From: an uncultured delta proteobacterium
GTDB taxonomy: Bacteria > Myxococcota_A > Polyangia > Haliangiales > Haliangiaceae
NCBI GenBank assembly: GCA_963848295.1
Contig: CAWKDB010000010.1
Location: 4,192,001 to 4,256,000, forward strand
Direction of reading: 5' to 3'
Length of the DNA: 64,000 bases
Part shown: piece after piece, positions 2,653 through 63,061 of the stretch
Layout: each line of letters starts with the position of its first letter
How positions within the stretch are numbered: position 1 is the stretch's first letter
Position numbers and translations under genes: made by a program
The notes under the pieces: generated by a model
Seen by the model: the letters and a program-made list of their open reading frames with translations, nothing else
Told to the model about the DNA's origin: nothing
Databases searched by the model: none

Positions 2653-2741
2653 CGCAAGAAGTGCGCGAATGGCGAGTGCCGTCGCAGCCGCTTCGCGAAC
2701 GATGTCCGCCGCACGCCACTATCGCTGGCACGACCTGCGCA
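2653..2741 (+). promoter_or_regulatory. Paired CGCA-N5-TGCG sites plus sigma54 promoter
   Basis: Sites 2653-2665 (perfect) and 2683-2695 (1 mismatch); TGGCACGACCTGCGCA (GG-N10-GC) at 2726-2741. Confidence 0.7.
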
Positions 2742-2753
2742 GTGTGCCGAGGT

Positions 2754-2939
2754 ATGGCCGCTGTACTCGCACTCGTCATGCTTCCTGTCATCGCCGCGAT
2801 CGGCTGCTTCCTCGGAACGCTGCATGGTGGCGCCTCTCTATCGTCGGTGCTTGCCGCCGTCGCGTTCGTCGCGCTTGCCCTCGGCGTGCTCGGTGGGGCG
2901 TTGCGCTTCCAGCGATCGCTCGATGGCCCCGAGGATTAA
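2754..2939 (+). CDS. Small 2-TM membrane protein (61 aa)
   Basis: Two hydrophobic helices; ATG 13 nt after sigma54 -12 box. Confidence 0.55.
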   Translation: MAAVLALVMLPVIAAIGCFLGTLHGGASLSSVLAAVAFVALALGVLGGALRFQRSLDGPED

Positions 2940-2975
2940 CCCACGAAAATGCGCCACGGCGTGGCGTGTGCCGAC

Positions 2976-3401
2976 TCAGCCGCCGCCTTCGACGACGATG
3001 ACGTCGTCGCGCAACACTTTCGATGACAGGAAGTAGCGCTCTTCGGTCGATAGATGTTCGCGCAAACGCTGGAGCGCTAACCGCAACTCGGCGGTGACTC
3101 CGTCGGCTAGCGTCTTGTGAACGAGGCGATGTTCTTCGAAGTGATCGGTCACCATTTGCTCGATCCGGACCTCGGCAAAGGCGCCGCTATCGATCAGCAG
3201 TGGCCGCAGGAACTGCTCTTCGTGTCGGTTGTGTACCTTGAACGCGACGCGGAGCCGCGCGACCTCGGAGGTCAAGGCGGCGGGTTCGGCGCGACCGGCA
3301 TCGAGGTCGTCCGAAAGCTGTTCGCATCGATCGATCATCTCGCGCAACGCTTCGTGCTCGAGCAGCAGCTCGGCGAGGACCCTCGAGGGCGCGGTGCTCA
3401 T
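2976..3401 (-). CDS. Hemerythrin/HHE-domain protein
   Basis: EH...HNRHEE...DHFEEH...HLSTEE metal-ligand pattern; GGAG RBS. Confidence 0.8.
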   Translation of the reverse strand: MSTAPSRVLAELLLEHEALREMIDRCEQLSDDLDAGRAEPAALTSEVARLRVAFKVHNRHEEQFLRPLLIDSGAFAEVRIEQMVTDHFEEHRLVHKTLADGVTAELRLALQRLREHLSTEERYFLSSKVLRDDVIVVEGGG

Positions 3402-3460
3402 GCCGGCTCTCCGCCGATGTTTTGCGACCTCGTTTGGTTCTCGAACATGCACTTGTTCCC

Positions 3461-3584
3461 TGCATCGGCCATTCCAGCCGATACGACGGTGGCGCCGCGC
3501 CAAGACTCGCAAGACATGCGTCTCGGCGTCGGTGCCGCGCAATGCTTGCGTGTCGTTGTGACGCGAGTTGGCATCGCGGTTGCT
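3461..3584. promoter_or_regulatory. Divergent sigma54 promoters sharing two CGCA-N5-TGCG sites
   Basis: Minus TGGAATGGCCGATGCA (3476-3461); perfect sites 3508-3520 and 3538-3550; plus TGGCATCGCGGTTGCT (3569-3584). Confidence 0.75.
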
Positions 3585-3596
3585 CGTCGTATAGAC

Positions 3597-3833
3597 ATGG
3601 CGCGAATCACCTGCAACGAGCTCCTCGATCGCGGCGACCTGGCGGCGACAACTGGCGACCGATCGACGCTCTCACGCGTAGCGTCGCTGCTTGCCAGTCG
3701 AGTCGGAGACCCGATCTCGGCCCGATTGCGCGGGCTCGCACGAGCGTGTCGTAGCGATGTTGAAGATGTGCGCACGACGTGGACGTCATTGCGAACAGAA
3801 GTCGTCACGCGCATCGCCACCGCAGGCACCTGA
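3597..3833 (+). CDS. Small hypothetical protein (78 aa)
   Basis: ATG 13 nt after sigma54 -12 box; helical composition. Confidence 0.55.
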   Translation: MARITCNELLDRGDLAATTGDRSTLSRVASLLASRVGDPISARLRGLARACRSDVEDVRTTWTSLRTEVVTRIATAGT

Positions 3834-3852: not shown

Positions 3853-4611
3853 TCAAGTGTGCGGTCGACGCGGCGTGACCGACCTGGCAAGCGCTGGCGT
3901 CTCGAGCCCAGCATCCACCGTGAGCTCTGACTGTAAGATCGACAGCGCCGTCGCCGGATCGTCGACAAAGCGGAACAACGACAGGTCCTCGCGCGCGATG
4001 ACGCCGTGGCGAACGAGGGCGTCGAAGTTGATGATCTCGTTCCAGTAGCTCGACCCGTACAGCAGGATCGTGATCTTGCGATCGAGCTTGCGGGTCTGCG
4101 CCAGCGTCAGCATCTCGGTCAGCTCGTCGAGCGTGCCGAACCCACCAGGAAACGCGACCATCGCGCGCGCGAGATACGTGAACCACAGCTTACGCATGAA
4201 GAAGTAGTGGAACTCGAACGACAGCTCGCGCGTGATGTACGGATTCGGGCGCTGCTCGTGCGGCAGGCCGATGTTGAGCCCGATCGTCCGACCGCCGGCG
4301 TCGGACGCGCCGCGATTCGCCGCCTCCATGATCCCGCCGCCGCCTCCGCTACAGACGATGAACCGTTGAGCGCCAGGCGGAAGTGACTTCGACCAGGCCG
4401 TGCACAGGCGGGCGAGCTCGCGCGCCTCGGTGTAGTACCGGCCGAGCGGACCGTCTTCGCGGGTACGCGCGGAGCCGAAGAATACGATCGTGTCCTGGAT
4501 CCGCTGGCGCTGGAATGCGCGCATCGGCTGGACATACTCGGCGAGGATGCGCAGCGGGCGCGCCTCGTCGCTGTCGAGGAAGTCTTCATCGTGATACGCG
4601 AGCGCAGTCAT
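3853..4611 (-). CDS. LOG-family (lysine-decarboxylase-like) nucleotide phosphoribohydrolase
   Basis: VFFGSAR, SGGGGGIMEAANRGA, PGGFGTLDE motifs; TAATG coupling with upstream gene. Confidence 0.9.
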   Translation of the reverse strand: MTALAYHDEDFLDSDEARPLRILAEYVQPMRAFQRQRIQDTIVFFGSARTREDGPLGRYYTEARELARLCTAWSKSLPPGAQRFIVCSGGGGGIMEAANRGASDAGGRTIGLNIGLPHEQRPNPYITRELSFEFHYFFMRKLWFTYLARAMVAFPGGFGTLDELTEMLTLAQTRKLDRKITILLYGSSYWNEIINFDALVRHGVIAREDLSLFRFVDDPATALSILQSELTVDAGLETPALARSVTPRRPHT

Positions 4612-5351
4612 TACTTGGCGCCGGCCCAGGCGATCGCGCCTTCGACGTCGTCGTATGCGAACGTCCTGATCTCCGCTGCGATGAAATGCTCGGCGAGTTT
4701 CGGTGCGAGGCTCGCGAGCTTGGTATCCGCCGCGAGCGCGATCCGCTTGACCTTCCGATGGTGGTCGCGCACGAACCTCAGGTGTCGAACGAGCGCGGGC
4801 AGGTTCTCCCAGCCGGGGAACGCCCGCGTGTGGATAACGAGCCCGGGTAGATCGCCGTGCGCCTCGATCCAGTGGTCCGCGGTGAAGGCCAAGGCGTCGA
4901 AGTCTTGCGCTCGCAAAGGTCGAGAGATGTCCACGACGAGCACGCCGGTCTGCGGCACGAGCCGATGCGTCACGGCCACGGTCTCCGGCAGCGACGCGAG
5001 CCATTCGATCGCACGAGTGCGCTCGGCGCTGGTGAAGGCGTTGATCGGATACGGCATGAAGAATGCGGCGAGCCGCGTGGCTTCACGCATCCACGCGACA
5101 TCTGTAACGATGGCGATGCCGTCGAACCGCCGGATCGATCCGATGCCGAGCTTCACGTCCTCCCATGCGCCACTCGGCGTTACACCGTCGAAGCTGAGCG
5201 CGATCTCGCACAGCACGCGGAGCCGCTTTCCATCGCGCCTGGCCTCGTCGAGCAGAGGCACGACGCTCCGTTCATAGTCCTGTTTCGAGATCCGGCCATC
5301 TGCACTCAGACCAGAGATCCCGGGTGGAAGATTTGCGATTCGTTCGATCAT
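4611..5351 (-). CDS. Tandem STAS/SEC14 (SpoIIAA-like) domain protein
   Basis: Two SpoIIAA-like repeats (AWEDVKLG...IAIVTD; FPGWE...KVKRIALAAD). Confidence 0.85.
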   Translation of the reverse strand: MIERIANLPPGISGLSADGRISKQDYERSVVPLLDEARRDGKRLRVLCEIALSFDGVTPSGAWEDVKLGIGSIRRFDGIAIVTDVAWMREATRLAAFFMPYPINAFTSAERTRAIEWLASLPETVAVTHRLVPQTGVLVVDISRPLRAQDFDALAFTADHWIEAHGDLPGLVIHTRAFPGWENLPALVRHLRFVRDHHRKVKRIALAADTKLASLAPKLAEHFIAAEIRTFAYDDVEGAIAWAGAK

Positions 5352-5902
5352 CGGTGTGCTCCATGCGCGGCATCAGTGCCGCTGATCTGTGCCTGACCCT
5401 CGTGCTCGGCCAGCAGCCCTCGTGCGCATTCGACCTCGGCCGGAGGTACGCTCGCGATCAACAAGAATCGGTCCGCCCCTAGCTCCCGCTCGAGCTGGAT
5501 CACCGTGTCCTTAGGGACGCCGAGTCCGAATAGAGCTGCGGCGAACGCGCTCGTCCCGCCGAGTACGGCGGCGCCGACCGCACCACCTTCGATGGCGCCC
5601 AGCAACATCGAGCCGACGATCCCACGCGTCACGATCGGGCCGATTCCCGGAATCCAGAGCGACGCCGGTGCGAGGACAATCCCGAACAGGGCGCCCCAGA
5701 AGGCGCCGTGGCGACCCCAGTACTTGACGCGATCGGCCGCACGGTAGAAGCCGACGGCATGTCCCTCGGCGTGACGACCGCGCCCGATGATCGAGAGCTT
5801 GTTCGTGTCGAAGCTGGCATGCTCCAGTGCGCGGAGCGCGCGCTCGGCGTCTCGATGGTGACCGAACACGGCGACACAGTGGCTGTCTGTAGTCGTCTTC
5901 AT
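5348..5902 (-). CDS. General-stress/DUF1269-like Gly-zipper membrane protein
   Basis: KLSIIGR...GFY...WGxxGAFWG, IPGIGP, LGVPKD. Confidence 0.8.
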   Translation of the reverse strand: MKTTTDSHCVAVFGHHRDAERALRALEHASFDTNKLSIIGRGRHAEGHAVGFYRAADRVKYWGRHGAFWGALFGIVLAPASLWIPGIGPIVTRGIVGSMLLGAIEGGAVGAAVLGGTSAFAAALFGLGVPKDTVIQLERELGADRFLLIASVPPAEVECARGLLAEHEGQAQISGTDAAHGAHR

Positions 5903-5919
5903 GTCTACCCGTACACCAC

Positions 5920-6019
5920 TGCATCAGAAGTGCCCGCGATCGAGTGGGACCACGCGCCTGTCGCGTCGGGGGTGTGCGCAGACGGTGCGGTGCGTTCTGC
6001 GACAGGCGCAAACCCTGCG
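5920..6019 (-). promoter_or_regulatory. sigma54 promoter with paired CGCA-N5-TGCG sites
   Basis: GGGCACTTCTGATGCA (5935-5920); perfect sites 5977-5989 and 6007-6019. Confidence 0.75.
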
Positions 6020-6025: not shown

Positions 6026-7678
6026 TCACTCGCGCGGCGGCTTTATGATTCGCCCGCCTCCAAACGGATGGCAGCCGGCGCAGCTCACTGCGGTCGGCTC
6101 GTGTTGCACGCGATCGCGATGGCAGGTCAAGCAGGTCGCGCGGTCGCTGCGGCCGGTCGCTGCGTGGGCCGAATGGCAAGCCGTGCAGGTTGCCTGGTGC
6201 TGTGCGACGCGATGCAAGCCCGGGAGCTGTGCTTTCGCGTGGCAGCTCTCGCACGCCGGTGGAGCGGCGGGTCCGCTCGGGCCGTGCGGGCGATGACAGC
6301 TCGCACACGCGAGCGCGACCCCGTGGCCGACCTTGATCTTTTCGGCGTGACACGTCGCGCACGCCGCCGTCGCTTGTTTAGGATCGTGCGGGTTGTGGCA
6401 ACCGTCGCAGCGTTGATGACCGGCCGGCGCGGACGCAGCCTCCGGACGATGGCAGCTCGCACACGCGGTCGTCGGCGCCTTTGGAGCGTGCGTCGCATTC
6501 GTGTGGCAGCTCGCGCACTCCGCGTGGCCGGTGCCGCTCGTCGTGTGCGCGTGATCCGCATGACAGCGCGCACACAACGCCGTGGTCGCGTTCGGCTTCG
6601 GGCCGTGCGCGGTATGGCAGAGCGCGCAAGCCGCGTGCCCGGTGTTTGCGGCCGAGTGGGAACGATCGGTATGGCACCTGCCGCATGTTGCAGCGTCGTT
6701 CGCGGGCTTTCCATCGTGCGCGACGTGACAGTCGAGACAGGGCGTATCCGCATGGTGCTCGGTCGCGTGACAGGTCGTGCAGGCGACCGCCTTCGTCCCC
6801 GACGCGACGAGCGCGCCCGAATGCACGGGGTGGCAGCCGGTACATGTTTGGCCGGCCGCGCTCGCCGGGTGAGAGACCAGCTGCTGGTGACACGTCGTGC
6901 ATGCGCGCGGCGTGTCGTCGTGCGGCGAGTGGCACATCGTGCATTGCTTGTGTGCCGCCGAGGCGAGCACGGGTTGATCGCGATGACACGTGGTGCATGC
7001 CGCGACCTCGGTCTTGCCAAACTCGTGCGGCTGGTGGCAGCCGGTGCACTGCGGGTGGCCAGCGGTCGTCGCGCGTGCGGTGATGTGAAGCGCGGCCGGC
7101 TGCGTCGCGTGACAGCTCGCGCACGCTCGATCCGCGAGGTGCTTGTCCTCGTGCACGCGGTGACAATCGAGACAGCCGTGCAGCCCGGCGTGCTGCGTCT
7201 TCTGCGCGGCATGACATGTCGTGCATGGCCTCGGATCGAGCGATGGTGTCTTGTGCGCATGGTGGCAGCTGCCACATGGTTGATCCGAGTGCGCGCCGAC
7301 CGCATGCTTGCCGTCCTGCGGTCGAGCGTGACAGCTCATGCACGGTGATCGCGGCTTGGCACCGGCTGCGGCGATGTCCGATTCGGTTCGCGGCTTGGCG
7401 CCGAACACGTGGCAGTCCCGGCAGGTCGGCACGTTGGCCACCGCCGGATGCAGCGGCGTGATCACGCCGGCGTGGCATCGCGCGCAGATTTCCGCTGGCG
7501 GCGGCGCGAACCCGGTATCGCCATGGCACGCGGCGCAAGCGACCTTGCCGACGTGAGCGATGTGGCCCGCGCTTCGAGCGACGTCGTGATACGTCGCCGG
7601 CACCTGCTCGGGGACTCGCTCGTCGGCGCCGCCACCGCAGCTGGCGATGACGACCGCGATCACGAGCGCGCGGATCAA
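6026..7678 (-). CDS. 27-heme c-type cytochrome lipoprotein
   Basis: 27 CxxCH counted in 550 aa; IASC lipobox; probable TTG start overlapping upstream TGA. Confidence 0.9.
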   Translation of the reverse strand: MIRALVIAVVIASCGGGADERVPEQVPATYHDVARSAGHIAHVGKVACAACHGDTGFAPPPAEICARCHAGVITPLHPAVANVPTCRDCHVFGAKPRTESDIAAAGAKPRSPCMSCHARPQDGKHAVGAHSDQPCGSCHHAHKTPSLDPRPCTTCHAAQKTQHAGLHGCLDCHRVHEDKHLADRACASCHATQPAALHITARATTAGHPQCTGCHQPHEFGKTEVAACTTCHRDQPVLASAAHKQCTMCHSPHDDTPRACTTCHQQLVSHPASAAGQTCTGCHPVHSGALVASGTKAVACTTCHATEHHADTPCLDCHVAHDGKPANDAATCGRCHTDRSHSAANTGHAACALCHTAHGPKPNATTALCARCHADHAHTTSGTGHAECASCHTNATHAPKAPTTACASCHRPEAASAPAGHQRCDGCHNPHDPKQATAACATCHAEKIKVGHGVALACASCHRPHGPSGPAAPPACESCHAKAQLPGLHRVAQHQATCTACHSAHAATGRSDRATCLTCHRDRVQHEPTAVSCAGCHPFGGGRIIKPPRE

Positions 7679-8712
7679 GGCCGCGATCCGATCGGATGAC
7701 ACAGCCGACACGGCATCGACGAGACCGGCACGCGGCTCGACCACCCCGGCGGATGAACCGTGCCACCGACCCCGCCGACCTTGTGACAACCGACGCACAG
7801 CATCTGACCGGCGCCGTCGTGACAGCTCGCGCACGAGGTCGGATCGCGGCGAGCCTCACGCCCGTGCTCGTTATCGGCGGCGGCTGGCCCGACCCAGCCC
7901 GGCGGATGCGGGCTGATCCGGCCGTTGCCCGCGATCCCGCGCTCGAGGTGGCAGCTCGCGCAGCGATCCGGCGAATGACACGTGGTGCACGCGCCCGGCT
8001 CGGCGCGCGCTTCGAGCGCGTGGCGCGCGACAAACCCGGCGCGATGCACGCTCGGCGCGAACGGATCGGAGAAGTGCAGCGTCGCGGGCAGCGCGGCGAC
8101 GGTCTTGCCATGGCACTCCGCGCAGAACTGTTCGCGGTGGCACGACTGACAGACGTCACCCGACGATGCGGCGCGCGTCCCGTGCTCGCGGAGCCAATCG
8201 CCATCGTGTGCGAGGTGGCTCTGCGGCAGCGTCGTCGTGTCTTCGAGGTCGCGGTGGCACGCGTCGCATTTGCGTGCATCCTGGGCGGCGTCGTGGTCAT
8301 GGCACTTGAAGCACGTCGCCATCGGCGGCTGCATGTGCTGGCCACCCTCGGTGACGCCGACGTGGCACCGCACGCAATCGCCGTTGGTCGGCCCGGCGTG
8401 CTTGCGATGATCGAACACGAGATGGTCTCGCGTCTCCGCGAGCTCGGCGAGCGCGTTCGCCTCGGCATGACAGCCGAGACACGGATGCGTGTCATGCGGC
8501 TTGGCGTGGCAGGTCGTGCACGTCGCGTCATCCGGGATGTGCAGCTCGGTCCCACTTCCCGCGTTGATGCCGACATGACAGCGCGTGCACGCGACGCCCG
8601 CCAGCGCGTGCTTGAGGTGCGGGAACGGTTGCGGCCCGCTGCCGGTCAGCCCGAGCACGCCGGCGCATGCGGCGAATGCCACGCACGCGATCACCGCGAC
8701 GAGCCGCTTCAC
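7675..8712 (-). CDS. 13-heme c-type cytochrome (c3/c7-like), probable lipoprotein
   Basis: 13 CxxCH; FPHLKH/FDHRKH c3-type His motifs; FAAC lipobox; GTGA coupling. Confidence 0.9.
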   Translation of the reverse strand: MKRLVAVIACVAFAACAGVLGLTGSGPQPFPHLKHALAGVACTRCHVGINAGSGTELHIPDDATCTTCHAKPHDTHPCLGCHAEANALAELAETRDHLVFDHRKHAGPTNGDCVRCHVGVTEGGQHMQPPMATCFKCHDHDAAQDARKCDACHRDLEDTTTLPQSHLAHDGDWLREHGTRAASSGDVCQSCHREQFCAECHGKTVAALPATLHFSDPFAPSVHRAGFVARHALEARAEPGACTTCHSPDRCASCHLERGIAGNGRISPHPPGWVGPAAADNEHGREARRDPTSCASCHDGAGQMLCVGCHKVGGVGGTVHPPGWSSRVPVSSMPCRLCHPIGSRP

Positions 8713-9924: not shown

Positions 9925-10181
9925 TTCTTGCCGTACTCCCGGCGCAGCTGGCGCACGACGACGAAGAGATAGAGTCCGAACGCCGTCGTCCCGACCACTT
10001 GGCCGACGGTCATAGCGAGCATCACGGGGAGCGGCGTCGGCTGGAGCATCGACCACACCATCAGGGCGAGCCCGATCAGGGTCAGCACCGCGGCCAGACG
10101 CAACGCGAGCGTCGCGCGGCGGCTCAGACCGCCGGCGTCTGCGGGCTGCTCCGGCTCGGCAGCTGTGGTCTCGTCGGTCAT
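9921..10181 (-). CDS. Small 2-TM membrane protein in cytochrome operon
   Basis: MTDETT...; ATG overlaps the reconstructed NapC stop; two TM helices. Confidence 0.7.
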   Translation of the reverse strand: MTDETTAAEPEQPADAGGLSRRATLALRLAAVLTLIGLALMVWSMLQPTPLPVMLAMTVGQVVGTTAFGLYLFVVVRQLRREYGKK

Positions 10182-14217: not shown

Positions 14218-14437
14218 ATCACGTCGCGTGCCATCACAAGAAGTTCGCGACCTCGCTGGTCATCCGAGGCATTCGGCCTCGAACCGCGAGGCGGTCGGCT
14301 CGGGAGCGCGCATCGCGGGACGCTCGTGAGCGCGACCGCTCGCTCGGTCGGACCGCAGCGAAGAGATGCACAGGGTTGCGTGGCGGACGGAAAGCGCAAG
14401 CCGTGCGTGCAGGCGCGACCGGCGCGCATGATCTGCG
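14218..14437 (-). promoter_or_regulatory. sigma54-like promoter of cytochrome operon with paired CGCA-N5-TGCG sites
   Basis: TGGCACGCGACGTGAT (14233-14218; GA at -12); perfect sites 14395-14407 and 14425-14437. Confidence 0.7.
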
Positions 14438-15037: not shown

Positions 15038-15053
15038 GGCAACTGACGTGCCA
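15038..15053 (-). promoter_or_regulatory. sigma54 promoter
   Basis: TGGCACGTCAGTTGCC, near-consensus; ATG 14 nt downstream. Confidence 0.8.
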
Positions 15054-15481: not shown

Positions 15482-15605
15482 TTCACGTGTCGTGCCGGGC
15501 CTCGCGCTGCTTTTCCGGCAAGCGATGCGGAACGGACAGGCGGCGCCGCCGACTTTGCGCGAATCCAAGATCGATCGGCCGAGTTGCCGTGGCGCGCGGC
15601 TTGCT
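15482..15605. promoter_or_regulatory. Divergent sigma54 promoters with two imperfect CGCA-N5-TGCG sites
   Basis: Minus CGGCACGACACGTGAA (15497-15482); sites 15517-15529 and 15547-15559; plus TGGCGCGCGGCTTGCT (15590-15605). Confidence 0.65.
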
Positions 15606-18298: not shown

Positions 18299-18356
18299 CG
18301 CAACATCTGCGCGATCGCTGCCCCGTTCGCAGCAGTTTGCTGGCCTGGTTCGTGAA
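18299..18356 (+). promoter_or_regulatory. CGCA-N5-TGCG site and sigma54-like promoter
   Basis: Perfect site 18299-18311; TGGCCTGGTTCGTGAA 18341-18356 (GA at -12); ATG 14 nt downstream. Confidence 0.55.
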
Positions 18357-18895: not shown

Positions 18896-18983
18896 AGCAG
18901 ATCCTGCGGGCGCTGGCCCTGGGCCGCAAATCTTGCGCGGATCTTTCCGGAACTAGCTAACCAAGCGTGGCACGCTCCTCGCT
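18896..18983 (+). promoter_or_regulatory. Paired sites plus sigma54 promoter of regulator operon
   Basis: Sites 18896-18908 (1 mismatch) and 18925-18937 (perfect); TGGCACGCTCCTCGCT 18968-18983. Confidence 0.7.
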
Positions 18984-19005: not shown

Positions 19006-20398
<1,393 letters not shown>

Positions 20399-20415
<17 letters not shown>

Positions 20416-21589
20416 CTCGGTCCTCGCCGAGATTTTGACTTCGGTAGCGCTCGACGAGGCCGATCGCGCGCGGCTCGTCGCTCTGCGCGCGCGGTTAGCG
20501 TCGCAGTTTCCGGAGATCGCCGATCGATTCTACGACAGGGTGCGCGCGAACCCCGCGACCGCTCAGCTGATATCCGACCCCGAGCAAGTCGCGAGGCTAC
20601 ACGCGACGCTCATCGAGTGGATGTCGAGCGGCTTGCTCGGCCCCTACGACGAGGCGTTCTCCGCCAAGCGCTCGCGGATCGGCCGGCGCCACGTCGAGAT
20701 CGGCTTGCCGCAGCACTACATGTTCACCGCGATGAGCACGATCCGCGGCGAGTACGACGATCGGATCTCCGCACTCTACGATCCCGCGGAGGCGAGGTTG
20801 GTGTCGAAGTCGGTCGACAAGTTGCTCGACGTCGAGCTCGCGTTGATGCTGCGCCACTACCAGCTCGACTCCGAGGCCAAGCTCGTCGAGAGCGAGCGAC
20901 GCGTGCACTCCGACCGCGTGATCGCGATCCAGACGCTATCCGCCGGACTCGCGCACGAGGTCCGCAACCCGCTGAACTCGGCCAAGCTCCAGCTCGAGTT
21001 GCTCGAGCGGCGCCTCAAGCGTGAGGGCGGCGACCCCAAGCTCGTCGATCCCGTCGACCTCGCTAACGAAGAGATCGAGCGGCTCACTCGGCTGCTCAAC
21101 GAGTTCCTCGCGTTCGCGCGTCCGCCGGATCTCGCGCTCGGCGATCACGATGTCGTCGCGATCGCGCGCAACGTCGTGACGAGCGACCGGATGCTATGCA
21201 CGCAGCGCGGAGCGGCCCTGGAGCTCGAGCCCCACGAACCGCTGGTCGCGCGCATCGACGCGACGAAGCTCGAGCAGATCGTCCACAACCTCGTCCGCAA
21301 CTCGATCGAGGCTGTGTCCGCGGGTGGGCACGTCAGGGTCGCCGTTCGCGGCGACGATTCGCACGTTAACGTGTGCGTCGAAGACGACGGTCCCGGCATC
21401 CCGGCCGCGATTCAAGCGCGGATCTACGAGCCGTTCTTCACGACCAAGGACAGCGGCACCGGCCTCGGCATGTCGATCGTCCACAGCATGGTCACCCTGC
21501 ACGGCGGCACCATCGCGATCGAATCGAGCTCGAACGGCACGCGGTTCGACGTCGCGATCCCGCGTCAGCCCCCAGGCCGCAGCCGCTGA
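20399..21589 (+). CDS. Globin-coupled sensor histidine kinase (AfGcHK-like)
   Basis: Sensor globin motifs ADRFY (B10 Tyr) and RIGRRHVEIGLPQHYM (F8 His); AHEVRNPL, DDGPG, GTGLG. Confidence 0.9.
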
Positions 21590-49391: not shown

Positions 49392-49477
49392 TGCAATTGT
49401 GAGCCCGTGGCTGACTGGGCGCCCTGGCCCCAACGCGGCCTTCGCGAGCGCCGATGAGCGCCGGCGCACGGTGTGCG
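49392..49477 (-). promoter_or_regulatory. sigma54 promoter with CGCA-N5-TGCG site
   Basis: CGGGCTCACAATTGCA (49407-49392); perfect site 49465-49477. Confidence 0.6.
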
Positions 49478-54052: not shown

Positions 54053-54113
54053 GGTCAGCCTCTTTCTTGGTTCACGTGAAGCGGGTGAAATGGGTGGATC
54101 TCGCGACGCCTCG

Positions 54114-55151: not shown

Positions 55152-55185
55152 CGCGTGCTCTCTTTCGTTCCTCGGCTGAAACAGC

Positions 55186-55506: not shown

Positions 55507-55599
55507 GATGATGCTTTCGCAGAGTGATCCGATGGGACGCGAGCGCCTCGTCCCGCGCGAGGACTTCGCCGCGCCCACCGACCGGTCGGACTTCGCGTG

Positions 55600-55803
55600 T
55601 GCATGTGTCGAGCCGAGCATCGAGTGCGGAGATTCAGACGAGAGCGCCACGGAACGCACCCGTATTGGCCGCCGGCGCACGGTGGGCGCGCACGCTCGAT
55701 CGTTCCTGCGGTCAGGTGTTGTCGACGCCCGCGCCGATACTGCAGCGCCGTGTCCGATCGCGCAGCTCCTGCGGCGCACGCGACCTGACACGCACTTTCT
55801 GCG
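55600..55803 (-). promoter_or_regulatory. sigma54 promoter with paired CGCA-N5-TGCG sites
   Basis: CGGCTCGACACATGCA (55615-55600); perfect sites 55761-55773 and 55791-55803. Confidence 0.65.
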
Positions 55804-55829
55804 CACGGCACACCACGCTTGTCGACCGG

Positions 55830-56937: not shown

Positions 56938-59340
56938 CGCGGGCCAGGTCCAGCTCGCGGATCTCCGGCAGGTCCTCGAGGTGCTCCGCGACGTACGCTG
57001 CGCTGGCGCGCGAGCATCGCGAAGCAGGCGTCGGTCAGCTCCTTGGCGTTCGGCGAGCGGCCGGCGCGCGCGCCGGATCGCGTCGATCGCGAGGTGGTAG
57101 CGGCTGGTCTCGTTGAGCACGACCATGTCGAACGGCGTCGTCGTGGTGCCTTCTTCTTCGTAGCCGCGGACGTGGAACCGCGCCGCGTGGGGACGCGCGT
57201 GCAGGAGCTGATGGATGCGCGCCGGGATAGCCGTGGAACGAGAAGCACGACGTGGGTGTCGCGCGTGAACAGCGCGACGAACACGCTCGTCGGTCATGCC
57301 GTGCGGGTGCTCGCGCGGCGAGAACAGCTTCATCAGATCGACGACGTTGACGACGCGCACGCGCAGCGCGGGCGCGTGCGCGCGCAGCCACGCCGCCGCC
57401 GCGAGCGTCTCGAGCGTCGGCGATGTCGCCGGCGCAGGCGAGCACGACGTCCGGGTCGTCCGTCGGCGCGGTCGCGGCTCGGTGCAGCTCGGCCCACGCC
57501 CACGCCCAGATCGACGCGCCGCGCGCGCAGTGCTCGCGCGCCGCCGCGAGGTCGAGCCACTGCAGCTGCGGCTGCTTGTCGATGATGATCGAGGTTGACG
57601 TAGTTCTTGCTGCGAAGGCAGTGGTCGGCGACCGAGAGCAGGCAGTTCGCGTCGGGCGGCAGGTAGACGCGCGCGACGGTGCCCTTCTTCGACATGATCG
57701 TGTCCATGAAGCCGGGCCCCTGATGGCGAGAAGCCGTTGTGGTCGTTGCGCCAGCACGTCGACGTCAGCAGGTAGTTGAGCGACGGCACCGGCGCGCGCC
57801 ACGGCAGGCCGCCAGTCATCTCGAGCCACTTCGCGTGCTGCGTCGCCATCGACGCGACGATCAGCGCGAACGCCTCGTAGGTCGCGAACACGCCGTGGCG
57901 GCCGGTGAGCACGTAGCCCTCGAGCCAGCCCTGGCAGTTGTGCTCGCTGAGCACCTCCATCACGCGGCCGTCGGGCGAGACGTGGTCGTCGATCGCGATC
58001 GACGGCTCCTGGAAGCAGCGGGTCTCGACCTCGAACACCGCGCCGAGCCGGTTCGAGTTGGTCTCGTCGGGGCAGACCAGCCGGAAACGTCGTCGGGTTC
58101 GCTGACGTAGAGGTCGCGCAGCAGCTCGCCGAGCGCGCGCGTCGACTCGTGGCGCATGGCGCCCGGCGCGGGCACGTCGATCGCGTAGGTCGCGAGCGCG
58201 GGCACGTCGAGCTCGATGCGGAGCCCGCCGCCGTTCGCGTGCGGGTTCGCGCCCATGCGCCGCGCGCCTTTCGGCGCCAACGCGCGCAGCGAGCTCGGAC
58301 GAGCGGCCGTTCGTCGTCGAACAGCGCGCTCGGGCTCGATAGCTGCGCATCCAGGCCTCGAGCATCGCGAGGTGCGCCGGATCCGTGCGCACGCCGGCGA
58401 GCGGCACCTGGTGCGCGCGGAACGTGCCCTCGACGGGCAGGCCGTCGACGACTTTGCGGGCCGGTCCAGCCCTTCGGCGTGCGCAGCACGATCATCGGCC
58501 AGCGCGGCACGCCGCGAGCGCCGCCGGACGCGCGCGGCATGCCTGGATCGACCGGATCCGCTCGACGCACGTATCGAGCGTCGCCGCGAGCGCGCGGTGC
58601 ACCGGCATCGGATCGTGATCGCCTTCGACGAAGTGCACCTCGTAGCCGTGCCCCTCGAGCATGACTGCGGATCGACGTCGTCGGTCGCGCGGCCGAGCAC
58701 CGTCGGGCCGGAGATCTTGTAGCCGTTGAGGTGAAGGATCGGCAGCACCGCGCCGTCGCGCGCGGCGTTGAGGAAGCTTGATGCCCTTCCACGAGCCCTC
58801 GAGCGGCCCGGTCTCGGCCTCGCCGTCACCGACCACCGCGACCGCGACCAGGTTCGGGTTGTCGAACACCGCGCCGAACGCGTGCGTGAGCACGTAGCCG
58901 AGCTCGCCGCCCTCGTGGATCGAGCCGGGCGTGGTGCGGCCCGACGTGGCTCGGGACGCCGCCGGGCGTCGAGAACTGGCGGAACAAGCGCGTCATGCCG
59001 ACCGCGTCTTCAGTCGACCCGCGGATAGATCTCGGAGTACGTGCCTTCGAGATAGACGTTCGCGACGATCGCCGGCCCGCCATGGCCGGGGCCGGCGAGG
59101 AAGATCACGTCGAGATCGTGCCTCTGGATCACGCGATTGAGATGCGCGTAGATCAGGCTGAGCCCCGGCGACGTGCCCCAGTGTCCGAGCAGGCGCGGCT
59201 TGATGTGCTCGGGCCGCAGCGGCTCGCGCAGCAGCGGGTTGCTCGAGCAGGTAGATCTGCCCGACGGTCAGGTAGTTCGCGGCGCGCCAGTAGGCATCGA
59301 GGCCGTGCAGCTCGTCGTCATTGATCGAATTCGTCGTCAT
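56934..59340 (-). CDS. xfp: Phosphoketolase (multiple frameshifts)
   Basis: [62 protein letters not shown] across frames. Confidence 0.9.
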
Positions 59341-59384
59341 CTGATGATCCGCCCTCTCTTTCTTCGCTGTGCGAATCGCGGAGC

Positions 59385-59912
59385 TCAGACGCCGGCGGTC
59401 GCGCCGTGCTCGTCGAGCCAGAGCGCGCCGGTGGTCGCGAGGATGCGCTTCGCCGTGGCGACCTCGTCGAGCGTGCCGTGCGCGACGACGACGAACTGGT
59501 CGGCCTTGAGCGCGGTCTCGTACTTGAGGACGCTGTCCTTGGGAATGCCGATGCTGTAGAGGCCCGCGCCGAGCGCGGACAGCCCGCCGACCACGGCCGC
59601 TTCGCCGAGCGCGCCGACGATCCACCCCACCACCGGCCCGAGCGCCATGATCTGCCCGAAGCCCGGAATCGCGAACAACGCGGAGCCGAGCAGCAAGCCC
59701 CACAAACCACCCCAGAACGCCCCGCGCTTGCCCCAGAACTTCATGCGGTCACCGGCGTTGTAGAAGCCGATGACATGATCTTCGGTGTGATAGTCCTTGC
59801 CGACGATCGACAACTTCTTCATGTCGAATCCGGTGCTCTGGAACGCGCGCAGCGCCGCCTCGGCCTCGGGATGCGTTGCGTATATCGCGACCACGCTGTT
59901 TAGCTTTTCCAT
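59385..59912 (-). CDS. General-stress/DUF1269-like protein (paralog of 5348-5902)
   Basis: [33 protein letters not shown]. Confidence 0.85.
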
Positions 59913-59928
59913 TGTGCGAACCGCAACA

Positions 59929-59944
59929 AGCACGATCCGCGCCG
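59929..59944 (-). promoter_or_regulatory. sigma54 promoter
   Basis: CGGCGCGGATCGTGCT; ATG 17 nt downstream. Confidence 0.5.
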
Positions 59945-60156
59945 CCATCAGCTCGAACGGGCGCACATGGCGCGGGGCGACGAGGCCCCTGCTACCGAGT
60001 GTGACGTTGCTGGCTCGCGACCGGCAACTCGCCGTGCGCACGCGCTCACTGTGCCGGAGCGCCCTTCAATTCGCGCCGAATCGCGTTGAGACCGCCCGCA
60101 ATAGGGCGTATTGCGCATGCCCGGTCGGCGTGGCGTGGCGTTGGCGTTGTGACAAC

Positions 60157-61209
60157 ATGTTGTACGAATTCCTTATCGAGAACCGTGCCGAGCTGATCGC
60201 GCGCTGCCGCGCAAAGATCTCGAGCCGGCCGGCGCCGCAGCCCACCGACATCGAGCTCGAACACGGAGTGCCGCTGTTTCTCGATCAGCTCGTCGACACC
60301 CTTCGCGGTGCGCTGACCGCCAACGCTGCAATCGACGATAGCGCCACGAGGCACGGTCACGAGCTGCTCGTGCGCGGCTTTACGATCGCGCAGGTCGTGC
60401 ACGACTACGGCGGCGTCTGTCAGGCGATCACGGAGCTTGCAGGCGAGCGGAACGCTCCGATCGAGCCCGGCGAATTTCAGGTCCTCAACCGTTGCCTCGA
60501 CGAGGCGATCGCAGCCGCGGTCACCGCATATGCAAAGCTACGAGCGCGCGAAGGTACCGAGCGGCTGGGGATGCTAGCTCACGAGCTGCGCAACCGGCTC
60601 AACACCGCCATTTTGTCGTCCGACATGCTGAAGTCTGGCAGCGTCGGTTGGACGGGGAGCACCGGCGCGGTGCTCACGCGCAGTCTGATGGGCCTGAAGA
60701 CGCTCATCGATCGCGAGCTTGCGGACGTGCGCATCTCGTCGGAGAACTGCCAGCTCGGGACGCTGTTGATTCGAGATTTCGTCGCCGACATCGAGGTTGC
60801 GGCCGCGATGGAGGCGACCGCTCGCGGACTCACGCTCTCGGTGGTATCCGTCGCTGACGACGTCGCCGTGAACGCCGACGAGCACATCCTGGCATCGGTC
60901 GTGTCGAATCTGTTGCAGAACGCGTTCAAGTTCACCCGGAAGGGCGGTCACGTCGTCTTGCGCGTGCGCGCGACGGTCGAGCGCGTCCTGATCGATGTCG
61001 AGGATCAGTGCGGAGGGCTGCCGCCGGGAAAGGTCGGCGATCTGTTTCAGCCATTCGAGCAAGGTGGCGCCAATCGCGCAGGCCTGGGGCTCGGGCTGTC
61101 GATCTGCGAACGCGGCGCCCGGATGAATGATGGGAAGCTCCACGTCGTCGACCGCCCTGGCACGGGGTGCGTCTTCACGCTCGATCTGCCTCGCACGCTC
61201 GCGAAGTGA
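60157..61209 (+). CDS. Cytoplasmic histidine kinase with RsbRD_N-like helical domain
   Basis: HG..L..GFTIAQVVHDYG, AHELRN, NLLQNAFKF, DQCGG, GLGLGL. Confidence 0.88.
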   Translation: MLYEFLIENRAELIARCRAKISSRPAPQPTDIELEHGVPLFLDQLVDTLRGALTANAAIDDSATRHGHELLVRGFTIAQVVHDYGGVCQAITELAGERNAPIEPGEFQVLNRCLDEAIAAAVTAYAKLRAREGTERLGMLAHELRNRLNTAILSSDMLKSGSVGWTGSTGAVLTRSLMGLKTLIDRELADVRISSENCQLGTLLIRDFVADIEVAAAMEATARGLTLSVVSVADDVAVNADEHILASVVSNLLQNAFKFTRKGGHVVLRVRATVERVLIDVEDQCGGLPPGKVGDLFQPFEQGGANRAGLGLGLSICERGARMNDGKLHVVDRPGTGCVFTLDLPRTLAK

Positions 61210-61337
61210 GCACCTCGTCAGTCGGGGTCGGCGCCCCCCGGGCGTCTGCTCGCGATCTCGCTGACGCGCGGTCGTCGCGCGATCGATGTTCGGGATATCC
61301 AGCGAGAAGCGTCCGATCCGACATATAAGCTCATGCG

Positions 61338-62610
61338 ATGCTCAAGGACCTGCTCCCGATGGTGCCGGTCGACGCGCTCAACATCGCGCTCGTGCTGGCG
61401 CTGGCGTTCTTCGTCGGCCTCGAGCGCGAGGAGCACAAGCAGCGCGATGCCGGGCTACGCGTTCGGCGGGGTCACGGACCTTTCCGCTGATCGGGCTCGT
61501 CAGCTACGCGCTCGCGCTGATCTGCCGCGCCCGACCTCGTGCCCTGGGTGGTCGGCTTCGCCGTCGTCGGCGGCTTCATGCTGCTGTCCTACTACCACAA
61601 GCTCTCCGCCGAACCGCCGGCCGGGCGTCACCACCGAGATCTCGGCGCTCGCGACGTACGTCGATCGGCGGGCTGGTCCAGCACGAGTACTACTGGATCG
61701 CGACGACCATCGCGCGTCCTCAGCGTGCTGCTGCTCGAGCTCAAGAAGGGGCTCGAGGGGCTCACCAAGCACGTCGCCTCGAACGAGATCATCACGGTCG
61801 CGAAGTTCCTGGTGCTCGCCGTCGTCATCCTGCCGATCGTCCCCGATCGCGAGCTCACGCGCTTCCACCTCAATCCGTTCAAGACGTGGCTCGTCGTCGT
61901 CGCGGTGAGCGGCGTGTCGTTCGCGAGCTACGTCGCTGCAGCGCGTGCTCAAGGGGCGCGGCGGCGTCGTGCTGTCCGCGGTCCTTGGCGGCGCGTATTC
62001 GTCGACGGTGACGACGGTCGTGCTCGCGCGACAGGCCAAGGAGGCGCTGCGGCCGAACCTGTTCGCCGGCAGCATCCTGATCGCCTCCGGCGTGATGTAC
62101 GCTGCGGCTGGTGCTGCTGCTCGCGCTTCTTCAACCGCGGCGCTCGCGGCCGAGCTCGCGCCCGCGTTCGCGGCGCTCGGCGTCGTCGGCGGCGCTGGCC
62201 GGTTGGGTCGTCTCGCGACGGAGCGACGGCGACGCCGCGCCATCGAGCAACGCCGCGAGCCGAAGAACCCGCTCGAGCTCAGGGCGGCGTTCCTGTTCGC
62301 GCTCGTGTTCGTCGTGATCCTGGTGCTGACCAACCTGCGCGCGAGTACCTCGGCCGCGCCGGCCTCTACTCGCTCGCCGCGATCATGGGCGTCACCGACG
62401 TCGATCCGTTCATCCTCGGGCTCGCGCAGGGCGGCGCCGCGCGACGCCGCTCCGACTCGCCGCGGCGGCGATCGTGATCGCCGCGGCGAGCAACAACGTC
62501 ATCAAGGCGATCTACGCGTACAGCTTCGCCGATCGAGCGACCGGGCGGCGAGCCTTCGTCATGCTGGTCGCACTCGCGCTCTCGGGCTCGTTCCGCTCGC
62601 GTGGCTGTGA
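61338..62610 (+). CDS. MgtC/SapB-DUF4010 membrane protein (multiple frameshifts)
   Basis: VGLERE, TFPLIG, GVTTE, NPFKTW, YSST.TT, KNPLEL, GVTDVD across frames. Confidence 0.8.
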
Positions 62611-62611
62611 G

Positions 62612-62878
62612 CTATCCCGGCAACGCGCTCGCCGCGACCGGCGCGACGCTGATCGACGCCCGTGGCGCGACTCGGCCCCACTTGACGCGCGCCCAGATGC
62701 GCTCGTGAGCGTAGTACCCGACGGTCGTGTAGACGTTGCTGACGATCATAAACCCCAACGCGACTTCGACCTTGCGAGTGAAGACGTAGATCGCGAGGAA
62801 GTCGAGGCACACGATACATACGCGGTACGTGACCGCTTTGACGATCGACCGTTTGGTCGTGTCCACGAGGGGCTGCAT
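62612..62878 (-). CDS. DUF2061 membrane protein
   Basis: KRSIVKAVTYR, YYAHERIW.RVKWG. Confidence 0.85.
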   Translation of the reverse strand: MQPLVDTTKRSIVKAVTYRVCIVCLDFLAIYVFTRKVEVALGFMIVSNVYTTVGYYAHERIWARVKWGRVAPRASISVAPVAASALPG

Positions 62879-62890
62879 CGAACAGTCCCT

Positions 62891-63061
62891 TGCAATCATG
62901 GGGCCGCGCATCTCGTCCTTCGCGAAACCGTAGGGGACCGAGCCGCATGATGTGCCGCGGCGGTCGAAAGCGCGCAAGCCGTGCGCGCGACTCGACTCGG
63001 ACCGCGCGGGAGAAGGCGCTCGCACAGATCGGCAGGGAGGCGAGTCGGCGCGTTCCATGCA
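62891..63061. promoter_or_regulatory. Divergent sigma54 promoters sharing paired sites
   Basis: Minus CGGCCCCATGATTGCA (62906-62891); sites 62944-62956 (1 mismatch) and 62973-62985; plus CGGCGCGTTCCATGCA (63046-63061). Confidence 0.7.

Follow-up and report, generated by a model that had tools for sequence, protein, structure and literature searches.

The window analysed here, a stretch of 64,000 nucleotides from a soil myxobacterium, raises the question of which regulator reads the paired CGCA-N5-TGCG palindromes that recur beside its sigma-54-like promoters, and in response to what signal. The NmpRSTU system of Myxococcus xanthus, reportedly the subject of Bretl et al. 2018 (PMC6211767), is the point of comparison. 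EMSA and lacZ experiments (McAllister et al. 2025, PMC11841059) established that NmpR of M. xanthus recognises GCGCA-N5-TGCGC at paired sites (S1 and S2) with 14-15 nt between them. Under hypoxia it activates sigma-54 promoters in front of genes for CBS, USP and hemerythrin proteins and for P-type ATPase/cbb3, as well as in front of its own genes, a regulon of 7 promoters and 23 genes. We consider it probable that the paired palindromes of the window are bound by its own NmpR-type activator (19006-20415) and that, at low oxygen, this protein would activate the sigma-54 promoters next to them. The result would likely be a much enlarged copy of this known gene programme and not a new one. An earlier note on this DNA had taken the motif and regulon to be undescribed, which does not hold: for M. 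xanthus NmpR, PMC11841059 already describes the motif and its tandem spacing, the dependence on sigma-54, the autoregulation and the induction by hypoxia. The interpretation in that note is, as a whole, partly supported.

The paired palindromes that it listed are real, with four pairs exact on both sites, three carrying one mismatch and 15517/15547 carrying one per site, and both of its single perfect sites (18299 and 49465) are exact. Three pairs do lie between divergent promoters, as it had claimed (3508/3538, 15517/15547 and 62944/62973), and a pair precedes the activator's own promoter (18896/18925). The features are as follows, with offsets measured from the proximal site centre to the GG of the -24 element.

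2653..2695, S1/S2 pair, 30 bp centre to centre (2653 exact, 2683 with one mismatch)
2726..2741, plus strand, sigma-54-like promoter TGGCACGACCTGCGCA, offset 38 bp from the S2 centre, ATG at 2754 after 12 nt
2754-2939, plus strand, membrane-like ORF of 61 aa downstream of the TGGCACGACCTGCGCA promoter
3508..3550, exact S1/S2 pair, 30 bp apart, common to two divergent promoters
3461..3476, minus strand, sigma-54-like promoter, offset 39, ATG at 3448 after 12 nt
3398-3448, minus strand, 16-codon ORF whose TGA overlaps the hemerythrin start (3401) as ATGA
2976-3401, minus strand, hemerythrin gene after the 16-codon ORF
3569..3584, plus strand, sigma-54-like promoter TGGCATCGCGGTTGCT, offset 26, ATG at 3597 after 12 nt
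3597-3833, plus strand, 78-aa ORF without a Pfam family
5977..6019, exact S1/S2 pair, 30 bp apart
5920..5935, minus strand, sigma-54-like promoter, offset 49, ATG at 5902 after 17 nt
3853-5902, minus strand, operon of the 5920..5935 promoter: 5348-5902 (no assigned function), SpoIIAA-like 4611-5351, LOG/SLOG 3853-4611
14395..14437, exact S1/S2 pair, 30 bp apart, lying 169 bp upstream of the promoter of the cytochrome operon
14218..14233, minus strand, sigma-54-like promoter TGGCACGCGACGTGAT, -12 GA variant, ATG at 14203 after 14 nt
7675-14203, minus strand, multiheme cytochrome operon headed by the TGGCACGCGACGTGAT promoter
15038..15053, minus strand, sigma-54-like promoter TGGCACGTCAGTTGCC of USP gene 14443-15024, ATG at 15024 after 13 nt, no palindrome within 100 bp of the promoter
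15517..15559, S1/S2 pair, 30 bp apart, one mismatch per site, between divergent CBS genes
15482..15497, minus strand, sigma-54-like promoter CGGCACGACACGTGAA, GA variant, offset 27, CBS gene 15056-15469, ATG at 15469 after 12 nt
15590..15605, plus strand, sigma-54-like promoter, offset 38, leader with GGGAGG, then ATG at 15628
15628-16167, plus strand, CBS gene on the transcript from 15590..15605, which would continue into the PAS-PAS hybrid kinase gene 16330-18267
18299..18311, single exact site
18341..18356, plus strand, sigma-54-like promoter TGGCCTGGTTCGTGAA, GA variant, offset 37, USP gene 18370-18813, ATG at 18370 after 13 nt
18896..18937, S1/S2 pair, 29 bp apart, one mismatch in 18896, upstream of the activator gene
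18968..18983, plus strand, sigma-54-like promoter TGGCACGCTCCTCGCT of the nmpR-like operon, offset 38, leader with GAGAGG, TTG start at 19006
19006..20415, plus strand, NmpR-type activator P0001, with REC, sigma-54 AAA+ (Sigma54_activat) and Fis-type HTH (HTH_8) domains
20399..21589, plus strand, protoglobin-HisKA-HATPase kinase P0003, NmpU/AfGcHK type, overlapping the activator gene end by 17 nt
49465..49477, single exact site
49392..49407, minus strand, sigma-54-like promoter CGGGCTCACAATTGCA, offset 65, P-type ATPase ATG at 49376 after 15 nt
From 49376, minus strand, P-type ATPase gene with several frame changes down to about 46.9 kb, then split PPK2 genes
55761..55803, exact S1/S2 pair, 30 bp apart, about 250 bp upstream of the cyt c operon, promoter assignment uncertain
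Below the 55761 pair, operon of cyt c 55186-55506, ADH 54114-55151, aldehyde dehydrogenase and PntAB
62944..62985, S1/S2 pair, 29 bp apart, one mismatch in 62944, between divergent genes
62891..62906, minus strand, sigma-54-like promoter, offset 45, DUF2061 gene 62612-62878, ATG at 62878 after 12 nt
63046..63061, plus strand, sigma-54-like promoter, offset 68, then a leader, SpoIIAA-like 63112-63852 and a USP gene from 63849

In the assembly used, frameshifts affect many of the target genes located between 46 and 62 kb.

Exact palindromes number 16 in the window against 6.24 +/- 2.66 expected from 100 dinucleotide shuffles, none of which reached 16; by our gene calls three of them are intragenic (11337, 44859 and 63244) and had been missing from the earlier list. 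The whole 7.78-Mb genome contains 468 exact sites. The spacing check that had been proposed was run genome-wide, and 29-30 bp was enriched in every count: among exact sites up to 120 bp apart, 29 bp occurred four times and 30 bp six times (any other distance 0-2 times); with at most one mismatch in total, 11 and 17 times (other spacings from 13 to 60 bp, 0-6 each); and with a weight matrix (summed score of at least 22), 11 and 20 times (other spacings from 19 to 60 bp, 0-4), compared with 1-2 weight-matrix pairs in the reversed-genome control. Altogether the genome has about 31-35 site pairs 29-30 bp apart, clustered in four islands. Counting the bases of 44 sites together with those of their reverse complements (n = 88) yields (c)(g)CGCA(A/G)N3(Y)TGCG(c)(g), in which the half-sites are conserved and the spacers are not, and this consensus, as read from the counts, is the published NmpR site GCGCA-N5-TGCGC. 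As the published sites are 15 bp long, their gap of 14-15 nt corresponds to a centre-to-centre distance of 29-30 bp, the one found here.

Across the genome, 34 sigma-54-like elements lie within 20-75 bp of 35 pairs, with offsets of 37-41 (24 promoters), 26-28 (six), and one each at 49, 22, 66 and 69. Judged by these spacings, the site-to-promoter distances of 26-28, 37-41 and 49 bp are those of a fixed helical face, in steps of about 11 bp. Pair-plus-promoter composites scoring at least 26 occur 31 times in the genome and three times in its reverse, and rpoN was found (220 bits). The dependence on sigma-54 and the role of the pairs as tandem in-phase enhancer sites for the NtrC-type activator, both proposed earlier, are supported at the sequence level. 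The claim that each site has its GG-N10-GC/GA box stood for most sites; 55761/55791 has no clear promoter, and the boxes are 169 bp from 14395/14425 and 65 bp from 49465. The rigid layout is also broken at 62944 (offset 45) and at the 15038 USP promoter, which has no nearby site, and in four of the window's promoters the conserved GC at -12 is replaced by GA. The NtrC enhancer at glnAp2, with sites more than 100 bp upstream that act by looping, likewise has tandem dyads about three helical turns apart that nucleate an AAA+ oligomer, which activates the sigma-54 holoenzyme. In the present system the -24 GG is only 26-49 bp away from the centre of the proximal site, in increments of about 11 bp. 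An AAA+ ring would be nucleated by dimers bound at S1 and S2 (centred near -92 and -62) and could touch the sigma-54 holoenzyme without a long DNA loop. Because the ATG follows the promoter after 12-15 nt, most transcripts would be leaderless, and we infer that they begin no more than about 3 nt from the ATG. Across the genome, about 130 sigma-54-like promoters have the ATG placed in this way. The word 'leaderless' does not appear in PMC11841059, and the mxan_4236 reporter primer of that study has AGGAG before the ATG.

Conservation was checked among relatives, as the earlier note had suggested. Exact pairs occur in 25 of 41 genomes (G000 included), where a control pattern gave 0-1 hits. An activator ortholog scoring above 460 bits is present in 33 of 40 relatives (above 500 bits in 32), other NtrC paralogs reaching at most 445 bits. 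Exact pairs are found in 23 of these 33 and absent from 10, exact matching being a strict test, and of the seven relatives without the ortholog, six have no pair and one has a single pair. In 9 of 11 loci from relatives the ortholog is preceded by a pair plus promoter, and exact pairs adjoin orthologs in G003, G006, G012, G018, G023 and G037, the last from a different family; judged from these loci, the pair layout upstream of activator orthologs is conserved. The palindromes might instead be a repressor operator or a repeat element lying by chance near sigma-54-like sequences, a reading for which the three intragenic sites speak. We regard it as very improbable, since half-sites are conserved while spacers vary, the -24/-12 element stands at a fixed, helically phased distance, pairs accompany the activator ortholog and precede it across families, and experiments in M. 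xanthus have shown the identical motif to be an activator site (PMC11841059).

The putative orthology of P0001 to NmpR rests on the DNA motif, domain architecture, gene context and target families. Contig C4 encodes a paralog of it with 78% identity and an almost unchanged HTH stretch, and each of the genome's two nmpR-protoglobin kinase operons has a site pair of its own. The globin domain of P0003 (residues 8-157) matches the AfGcHK structure 5ohe (E = 3.8e-26). In M. xanthus the globin kinase NmpU, active with O2, phosphorylates both NmpT and the REC-kinase NmpS and keeps the latter silent; in hypoxia NmpS phosphorylates NmpR (PMC11841059). If the relay works as in M. xanthus, the O2-bound globin kinase would phosphorylate and silence an NmpS-type REC-kinase, which in hypoxia would phosphorylate NmpR. 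The C4 island encodes such a REC-HisKA-HATPase kinase (P0004), with orthologs of at least 53% identity in 15 of 24 same-genus genomes, about 2.5-4 kb from nmpR in four of the relatives (G009, G012, G023 and G024). Alternatively, in line with the direct wiring proposed in the earlier note, the co-transcribed protoglobin kinase may itself set NmpR phosphorylation, as kinase or phosphatase, without an NmpS-type intermediate, which we consider unlikely but far from negligible. The two genes are adjacent and translationally coupled in 12 of 12 loci of the genus, the window's own counted, which is the usual sign of a cognate pair and keeps this alternative alive; moreover, the window has no NmpS-type gene, and a search with this query found none in 9 of the 24 genomes of the genus and, outside the genus, none of at least 53% identity. 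Such wiring would differ from that of M. xanthus, and because AfGcHK-type kinases are active with O2 bound (PMC11841059), in its simple form it would activate the genes for hydrogenase, PFOR, cbb3 and fermentation when air is present. The evidence on wiring thus points both ways, with an NmpS-type kinase in the genome and near nmpR in relatives on one side and the tight nmpR-globin kinase operon on the other.

The predicted targets share CBS, USP, hemerythrin, P-type ATPase and cbb3 oxidase with the published NmpR families, and further include NiFe hydrogenase with Hyp genes, PFOR, PPDK, phosphoketolase with acetate kinase, multiheme cytochromes, nitroreductases, BON proteins and glycolytic genes. 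The low-oxygen, dormancy-like gene set proposed earlier finds support in these sequences. DosRST of Mycobacterium tuberculosis, a heme-kinase-controlled low-oxygen dormancy regulon rich in USPs, CBS proteins and nitroreductases, and with a phosphofructokinase, a P-type ATPase and an erythromycin-esterase-like protein among its members, is alike in working and in gene types, but it differs in regulator class (NarL/LuxR-type DosR), site and sigma factor, and the system here is not a member. A main signal other than O2 (redox state, NO/CO or energy charge) could also enter through PAS-PAS hybrid kinases, with the globin kinase only modulating: two such PAS-PAS-HisKA-HATPase-REC paralogs, 70% identical, lie inside islands (16330-18267 in the window and the C4 copy, directly 3' of the NmpS-type gene), and CBS and USP proteins, families treated in PMC11841059 as nucleotide-binding and energy-sensing, abound among the targets. 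This seems to us improbable, as hypoxia is the only signal experimentally tied to the regulator family according to the Discussion of that study, and the hemerythrins, cbb3 oxidase and protoglobin sensor all indicate O2.

The predicted system shares with M. xanthus an NtrC-type response regulator, two copies of GCGCA-N5-TGCGC with 14-15 nt between them, sigma-54 promoters, paired sites at the operon of the regulator itself, and a protoglobin kinase plus a REC-HisKA-CA kinase (PMC11841059). It differs in having two paralogous regulator-kinase operons, extra PAS hybrid kinases, nmpR in one operon with the globin kinase, and targets that extend to the further genes listed above. The AfGcHK system of Anaeromyxobacter sp. 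Fw109-5 also has a protoglobin-coupled histidine kinase; the genes under Nmp control in Anaeromyxobacter are described as unknown in PMC11841059, whereas here the regulon can be read from the DNA. The published M. xanthus regulon has 7 promoters and 23 genes; with about 31-35 pairs and at least 34 promoters, the one predicted here would be about five times larger. Beyond what that study describes, the system would add a larger regulon, short and helically phased site-to-promoter distances, and a predicted leaderless layout at most starts.

The palindrome CGCA-N5-TGCG (13 bp) was found 16 times in the window, against 6.24 ± 2.66 expected from 100 dinucleotide-preserving shuffles, none of which reached 16 (0/100). 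Thirteen of these 16 exact sites were intergenic by our own gene calls, and those at 11337, 44859 and 63244 were intragenic. An earlier note had described eight pairs and two single sites: four of the pairs were exact in both palindromes with a spacing of 30 bp (3508/3538, 5977/6007, 14395/14425 and 55761/55791), three carried a single mismatch in one site only (2653/2683, 18896/18925 and 62944/62973), and at 15517/15547 each site had one mismatch, while the singles at 18299 and 49465 were exact. Scanning the whole genome (7.78 Mb in 11 contigs), in which the window is C10:4192001-4256000, we detected 468 exact sites, and inter-site distances of up to 120 bp were enriched only at 29 bp (4) and 30 bp (6), with 0–2 occurrences at each other distance. 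Allowing one mismatch in total gave 11 pairs at 29 bp and 17 at 30 bp, with 0–6 at each of the other spacings from 13 to 60 bp. A weight matrix derived from the sites themselves (summed score of at least 22) gave 11 and 20, with 0–4 at the remaining spacings from 19 to 60 bp and 1–2 in the reversed genome. The palindromes and pairs of the earlier note are thus confirmed as highly non-random, and their 29–30 bp spacing is enriched over background in all three scans. Base counts over 44 sites read on both strands (n = 88) revealed a core of C 82, G 88, C 84 and A 81, with a flanking G in 49 of 88. The top-scoring single site of this type in the window is 11337-11349 (TCGCGCAATCGTTGCGCGC), which lies within a gene for a multiheme cytochrome and has no sigma-54 element nearby. 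Apart from one divergent pair at 670.6 kb of contig C2, the pairs fell into four islands:

Contig C4, 5-67 kb, pair island
Contig C10, 1.873-1.918 Mb, pair island
The window, pair island
Contig C11, 347-349 kb, pair island

These features closely match a published system. According to the accessible text of McAllister et al. 2025 (PMC11841059), NmpR of M. xanthus is an NtrC-like response regulator that binds GCGCA-N5-TGCGC in EMSA, mostly at promoters with two sites, S1 and S2, separated by a gap of 14–15 nt; in lacZ reporters, activation required S2 and the sigma-54 site. NmpR turns on its own operon, whose expression rises in hypoxia, and its regulon of 7 promoters and 23 genes includes CBS and USP genes, P-type ATPase with cbb3 oxidase, hemN with hemerythrin, and nmpUTS (PMC11841059). 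The M. xanthus consensus matches our site counts, flanking G/C included, and 15-bp sites with a 14–15 nt gap lie 29–30 bp apart centre to centre, which is the spacing seen here. Judged from its sequence, the system is a member of the NmpR family and is not new. The earlier note had held that motif and regulon were undescribed, which is incorrect, as the accessible text of PMC11841059 already gives the NmpR site, spacing and regulon; its broader reading, of a low-oxygen programme run through sigma-54 by an enhancer-binding activator, appears right in kind.

The activator itself fits this assignment, as does its own operon:

19006-20415 (+), NmpR-type activator
20399-21589 (+), protoglobin kinase

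Pfam detected Response_reg, Sigma54_activat, AAA_lid_14 and HTH_8 on 18967-20415, that is, an NtrC-type regulator with REC, sigma-54 AAA+ and Fis-type HTH domains as in the NmpR regulon. The pair 18896/18925 and a promoter at 18968-18983 precede the operon in a layout that would allow autoregulation. The same full arrangement of pair and promoter lies directly upstream of the activator ortholog in 9 of 11 loci from relatives, so the conservation that the earlier note had proposed checking was found. Among 40 relatives (one of them, G010, is unpublished and counted as one row only), exact pairs were present in 24 (25/41 with the present genome, G000), compared with 0–1 matches per genome for a reversed control pattern. 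Activator orthologs scored above 460 bits in 33 of the 40 (32 of them above 500), versus at most 445 bits for NtrC paralogs, and 23 of these 33 carry at least one exact pair; of the seven relatives lacking the ortholog, six have no pair and one (G013) has one. Exact pairs adjoin activator orthologs in G003, G006, G012, G018, G023 and G037, the last from a different family with an ortholog of 58% identity. In a phylum-wide draw, 17 of the 38 additional genomes from the same class had exact pairs; in the rest of the phylum 10 of 162 had one each, which is about the control rate (14/162), though so strict a pattern would overlook a regulon of the M. xanthus kind if few of its sites were perfect. 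A related-locus search based on the activator brought up chiefly generic NtrC-family members in a wide range of phyla and so gives a rough taxonomic hint only; its best records were Myxococcales, Polyangiales and Nannocystaceae MAGs at 54–59% identity.

A REC-less activator at 21821-22777 was set aside as the binder because its HTH stretch differs. This gene, which encodes a sigma-54 activator with AAA+ and HTH only, adjoins a Hyf/Ech-like membrane complex with NuoB-, NuoD-, NuoH- and NuoL/M-type subunits (window 21821-30516, minus strand), and no NmpR-type pair was found in that region.

We detected 34 sigma-54-like -24/-12 elements within 20–75 bp of 35 pairs (summed score of at least 20); their consensus is tGGCACG-N4-(a/t)TGC(a/t). 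The offset from the centre of the proximal palindrome to the first G of the GG was 37–41 bp at 24 promoters, 26–28 bp at six and 49 bp at one, with 22, 66 and 69 bp at one promoter each; the main classes are about 11 bp, or one helical turn, apart. Where two divergent promoters have a pair in common (window 3508/3538 and 15517/15547), one offset is about 38 bp and the other about 27 bp. A composite score of two palindromes plus promoter reached 26 at 31 places in the genome, compared with 3 in the reversed genome; below a score of about 18 this null gave more matches than the real genome, so only the high-score range was used. The genome also encodes rpoN (Sigma54_DBD, 220 bits, C2:1249355-1249831), and together with the putative sigma-54 promoters downstream of the sites this agrees with an NmpR regulon.

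At the classical glnAp2-type NtrC enhancer, sites lie at least 100 bp upstream and act largely independently of distance. Here, in contrast, 31 of 34 promoters lie at 26–49 bp in three phased classes. Several window sites deviate from this rigid layout, including the cytochrome promoter, whose pair is 169 bp away, and four promoters have GA in place of GC at -12. This variant (TGAT/TGAA) recurs at window 14218-14233, 15482-15497 and 18341-18356 and near 347.5 kb of C11, and it also precedes a USP gene in distant families (G086, G168: TGGCACGAAGCTTGAT). In such distant families, NmpR-type pairs lie 39, 50–52, 61–64 or 69–74 bp from the promoter, distances that are still roughly phased. DosR/DevR is a NarL/LuxR-type regulator with its own box at sigma-70-type promoters, whereas here an NtrC-type regulator goes with -24/-12 promoters; the two systems resemble each other in gene content only.

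The gene following the activator encodes Protoglobin, HisKA and HATPase_c domains (Pfam), and its globin domain matched the AfGcHK structure 5ohe with E = 3.8e-26, which places it with kinases of the NmpU/AfGcHK type. Unlike in M. xanthus, the globin kinase gene is next to nmpR in this genus (12/12 loci), which favours a direct partnership between them. In the published model, the AfGcHK homolog NmpU is active with O2 and phosphorylates both NmpT, which has two receiver domains, and the REC-kinase NmpS; at low O2, unphosphorylated NmpS phosphorylates NmpR (accessible text of PMC11841059). A kinase with the NmpS architecture (REC-HisKA-HATPase) was not found within the window but is present in the genome at C4:31922-33034. 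Its orthologs (at least 53% identity) occur in 15 of 24 genomes of the same genus, eight on the nmpR contig, and in G009, G012, G023 and G024 they lie about 2.5–4 kb or less from nmpR. We regard the published relay as more probable than direct wiring, since an O2-activated kinase working on NmpR itself would turn on anaerobic genes in air.

Gene content in the window was taken from Pfam, with gene starts refined afterwards. A simple GC3 gene filter was too noisy at 66% GC, so we used a codon-usage gene caller trained on this genome, the starts of which are approximate. The following genes are predicted targets:

2754, 61-aa membrane-like ORF
2976-3401, hemerythrin, after a 16-codon ORF
3597, 78-aa ORF
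5902 down to 3853, operon of an uncharacterised protein, SpoIIAA-like and LOG/SLOG
14203 down to 7675, multiheme cytochrome operon
15024 and 18370, two USP genes
15469 and 15628, two CBS genes
16330-18267, PAS-PAS hybrid kinase
19006-21589, activator-kinase operon
From 49376, P-type ATPase with PPK2
55506 down to 49560, cytochrome c, ADH, aldehyde dehydrogenase and PntAB (probable targets)
62878, DUF2061
63112 onward, SpoIIAA-like and USP

Predicted targets in the other islands include further hemerythrins, USP, CBS and BON proteins, nitroreductases, a Host_attach/baeRF12 protein, a P-type ATPase and a cbb3 oxidase, along with genes of anaerobic and central metabolism: NiFe hydrogenase with Hyp maturation genes, phosphoketolase with acetate kinase, ADH, phosphofructokinase, a GAPDH-PGK fusion, PFOR, PPDK and glycogen phosphorylase. 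They also include a PCMT-erythromycin-esterase fusion, a second activator (78% identical) whose globin kinase is frameshifted, and the REC-HisKA-HATPase kinase with another PAS hybrid kinase after it. Both fusions, of 672 aa (PCMT with an erythromycin-esterase domain) and 768 aa (GAPDH with phosphoglycerate kinase), are directly behind NmpR-type promoters at L005:3570-7986 (C10 1.8736-1.8780 Mb). Further along C10, in an N-type ATPase operon with AtpR and ATPase_gene1 (L006:8560-12492, C10 1.8986-1.9025 Mb), an oppositely oriented transposase gene (752 aa) interrupts the alpha subunit. In two distant families (G086 and G168), pairs again flank USP and hemerythrin genes.

Frame changes were dense at 46–62 kb of the window (at least 8 in phosphoketolase and at least 5 in the P-type ATPase), and genes at 7–35 kb were intact. 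The affected genes, within 46000-62600, are those for PPK2, P-type ATPase, PntB, aldehyde dehydrogenase, phosphoketolase and DUF4010, and acetate kinase in the same stretch lacks the first 85 model positions. These changes could be indel errors or could mark decaying paralogs of the intact C4 copies. Metagenome contigs (X1, X2) on 46000-60000 were short low-depth pieces from mixed relatives, and a single low-depth contig lacks a base exactly at the frame break at 59242, a weak hint of assembly indels, not pseudogenes. Elsewhere, an AbiEii nucleotidyltransferase toxin and AbiEi antitoxin lie at 40063-41537 (minus strand), in a stretch (39–43 kb) with few confident genes.

The start codons of the predicted targets lie unusually close to their promoters. 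The first ATG falls 12–15 nt past the 16-mer TGGCACGNNNNTTGCW in 25 of 34 regulon promoters, and 12–14 nt past the promoter of the activator in all nine relatives' loci that have the layout. The codon-usage gene caller, which is blind to promoters, picked the same ATGs in most cases, and Pfam boundaries agree with them; for example, the USP model starts at residue 4 of the protein at 18370. By the sigma-54 promoter convention, the GC lies at about -12. This would put the A of the start codon at roughly +1 to +3, leaving no room for a Shine-Dalgarno sequence in the mRNA. A pattern independent of the matrix, GGCACG-N5-TGC, has 191 occurrences in the genome; the first ATG follows the GC by exactly 13 nt in 37 of them, by 14 nt in 10, by 15 nt in 4 and by 16 nt in 9, and each remaining distance from 6 to 23 nt accounts for 0–3. 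Among 870 weight-matrix promoters, 164 had an ATG at 12–15 nt, and 131 of these ATGs start an ORF that runs to 60 aa or more and scores well for coding. A strong NmpR-type palindrome lies within 250 bp upstream of only about 21 of the 131, and the ATG-proximal sigma-54 layout is not special to NmpR targets. Examples of sigma-54-like promoters 12–15 nt before an ATG are at C2:499111-499140, C10:207970-207999 and window 15038-15053.

When 201 genomes of the phylum were compared, G000 had 40 matches to the fixed pattern (control 0), five other genomes of the class had 18–37, and most others had 0–12 versus 0–4 in controls. In distant families, genes behind NmpR-type pairs mostly have leaders of 30–56 nt, and the compact leaderless cassette would belong to the window's own lineage. 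Two cassettes appear to open with a leaderless mini-ORF that ends on the start codon of the main gene, the overlap reading ATGA:

Window 3398-3448 (minus strand), mini-ORF of 16 codons before hemerythrin; TGA/ATG overlap after a sigma-54-like promoter
L004:4804-4863 (minus strand), mini-ORF of 19 codons before a USP gene; TGA/ATG overlap after a sigma-54-like promoter

This overlap suggests that the main gene is translated by coupling. A 29-codon ORF was also seen upstream of an ABC-transporter gene (L002:19336-19425).

On balance, we lean slightly towards the view that the sigma-54 polymerase of this lineage makes leaderless mRNAs at scale, from about 130 -24/-12 promoters. These promoters, most NmpR targets included, would be positioned for transcription to start at the ATG, and the NmpR enhancer would be docked on one helical face 26–49 bp from the -24 element. 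A compact cassette of about 110 bp would then hold activator sites, promoter and start codon, and would require no DNA loop and no ribosome-binding site. Such compactness could explain growth from a 7-promoter oxygen regulon to more than 30 promoters, and the enlarged regulon would govern a dormancy and anaerobic-energy programme. In the literature searched, as far as its accessible text goes, we found no description of leaderless sigma-54 mRNAs as a class: the available part of PMC3616915 makes no link to them, and the leaderless pexR of PMC12754779 is described there as sigma-A-dependent. If true, phased short-range enhancers with likely leaderless transcripts would be an unfamiliar mode of sigma-54 promoter architecture, and leaderless sigma-54 mRNAs would be a lineage-wide habit.

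The interest of the system lies in the size and content of its regulon and in its compact, phased and probably leaderless promoter cassette. NmpR, studied so far only in M. xanthus with 7 promoters known, would become a conserved programme whose outlines can be read in the DNA of an entire class of soil myxobacteria. The lineage is considered aerobic, and the programme is predicted to control hydrogenases, pyruvate:ferredoxin oxidoreductase, phosphoketolase fermentation, multiheme cytochromes, a high-affinity oxidase and numerous stress proteins. This offers a ready hypothesis that the NmpR-type programme may be a means of surviving anoxic periods in soil.
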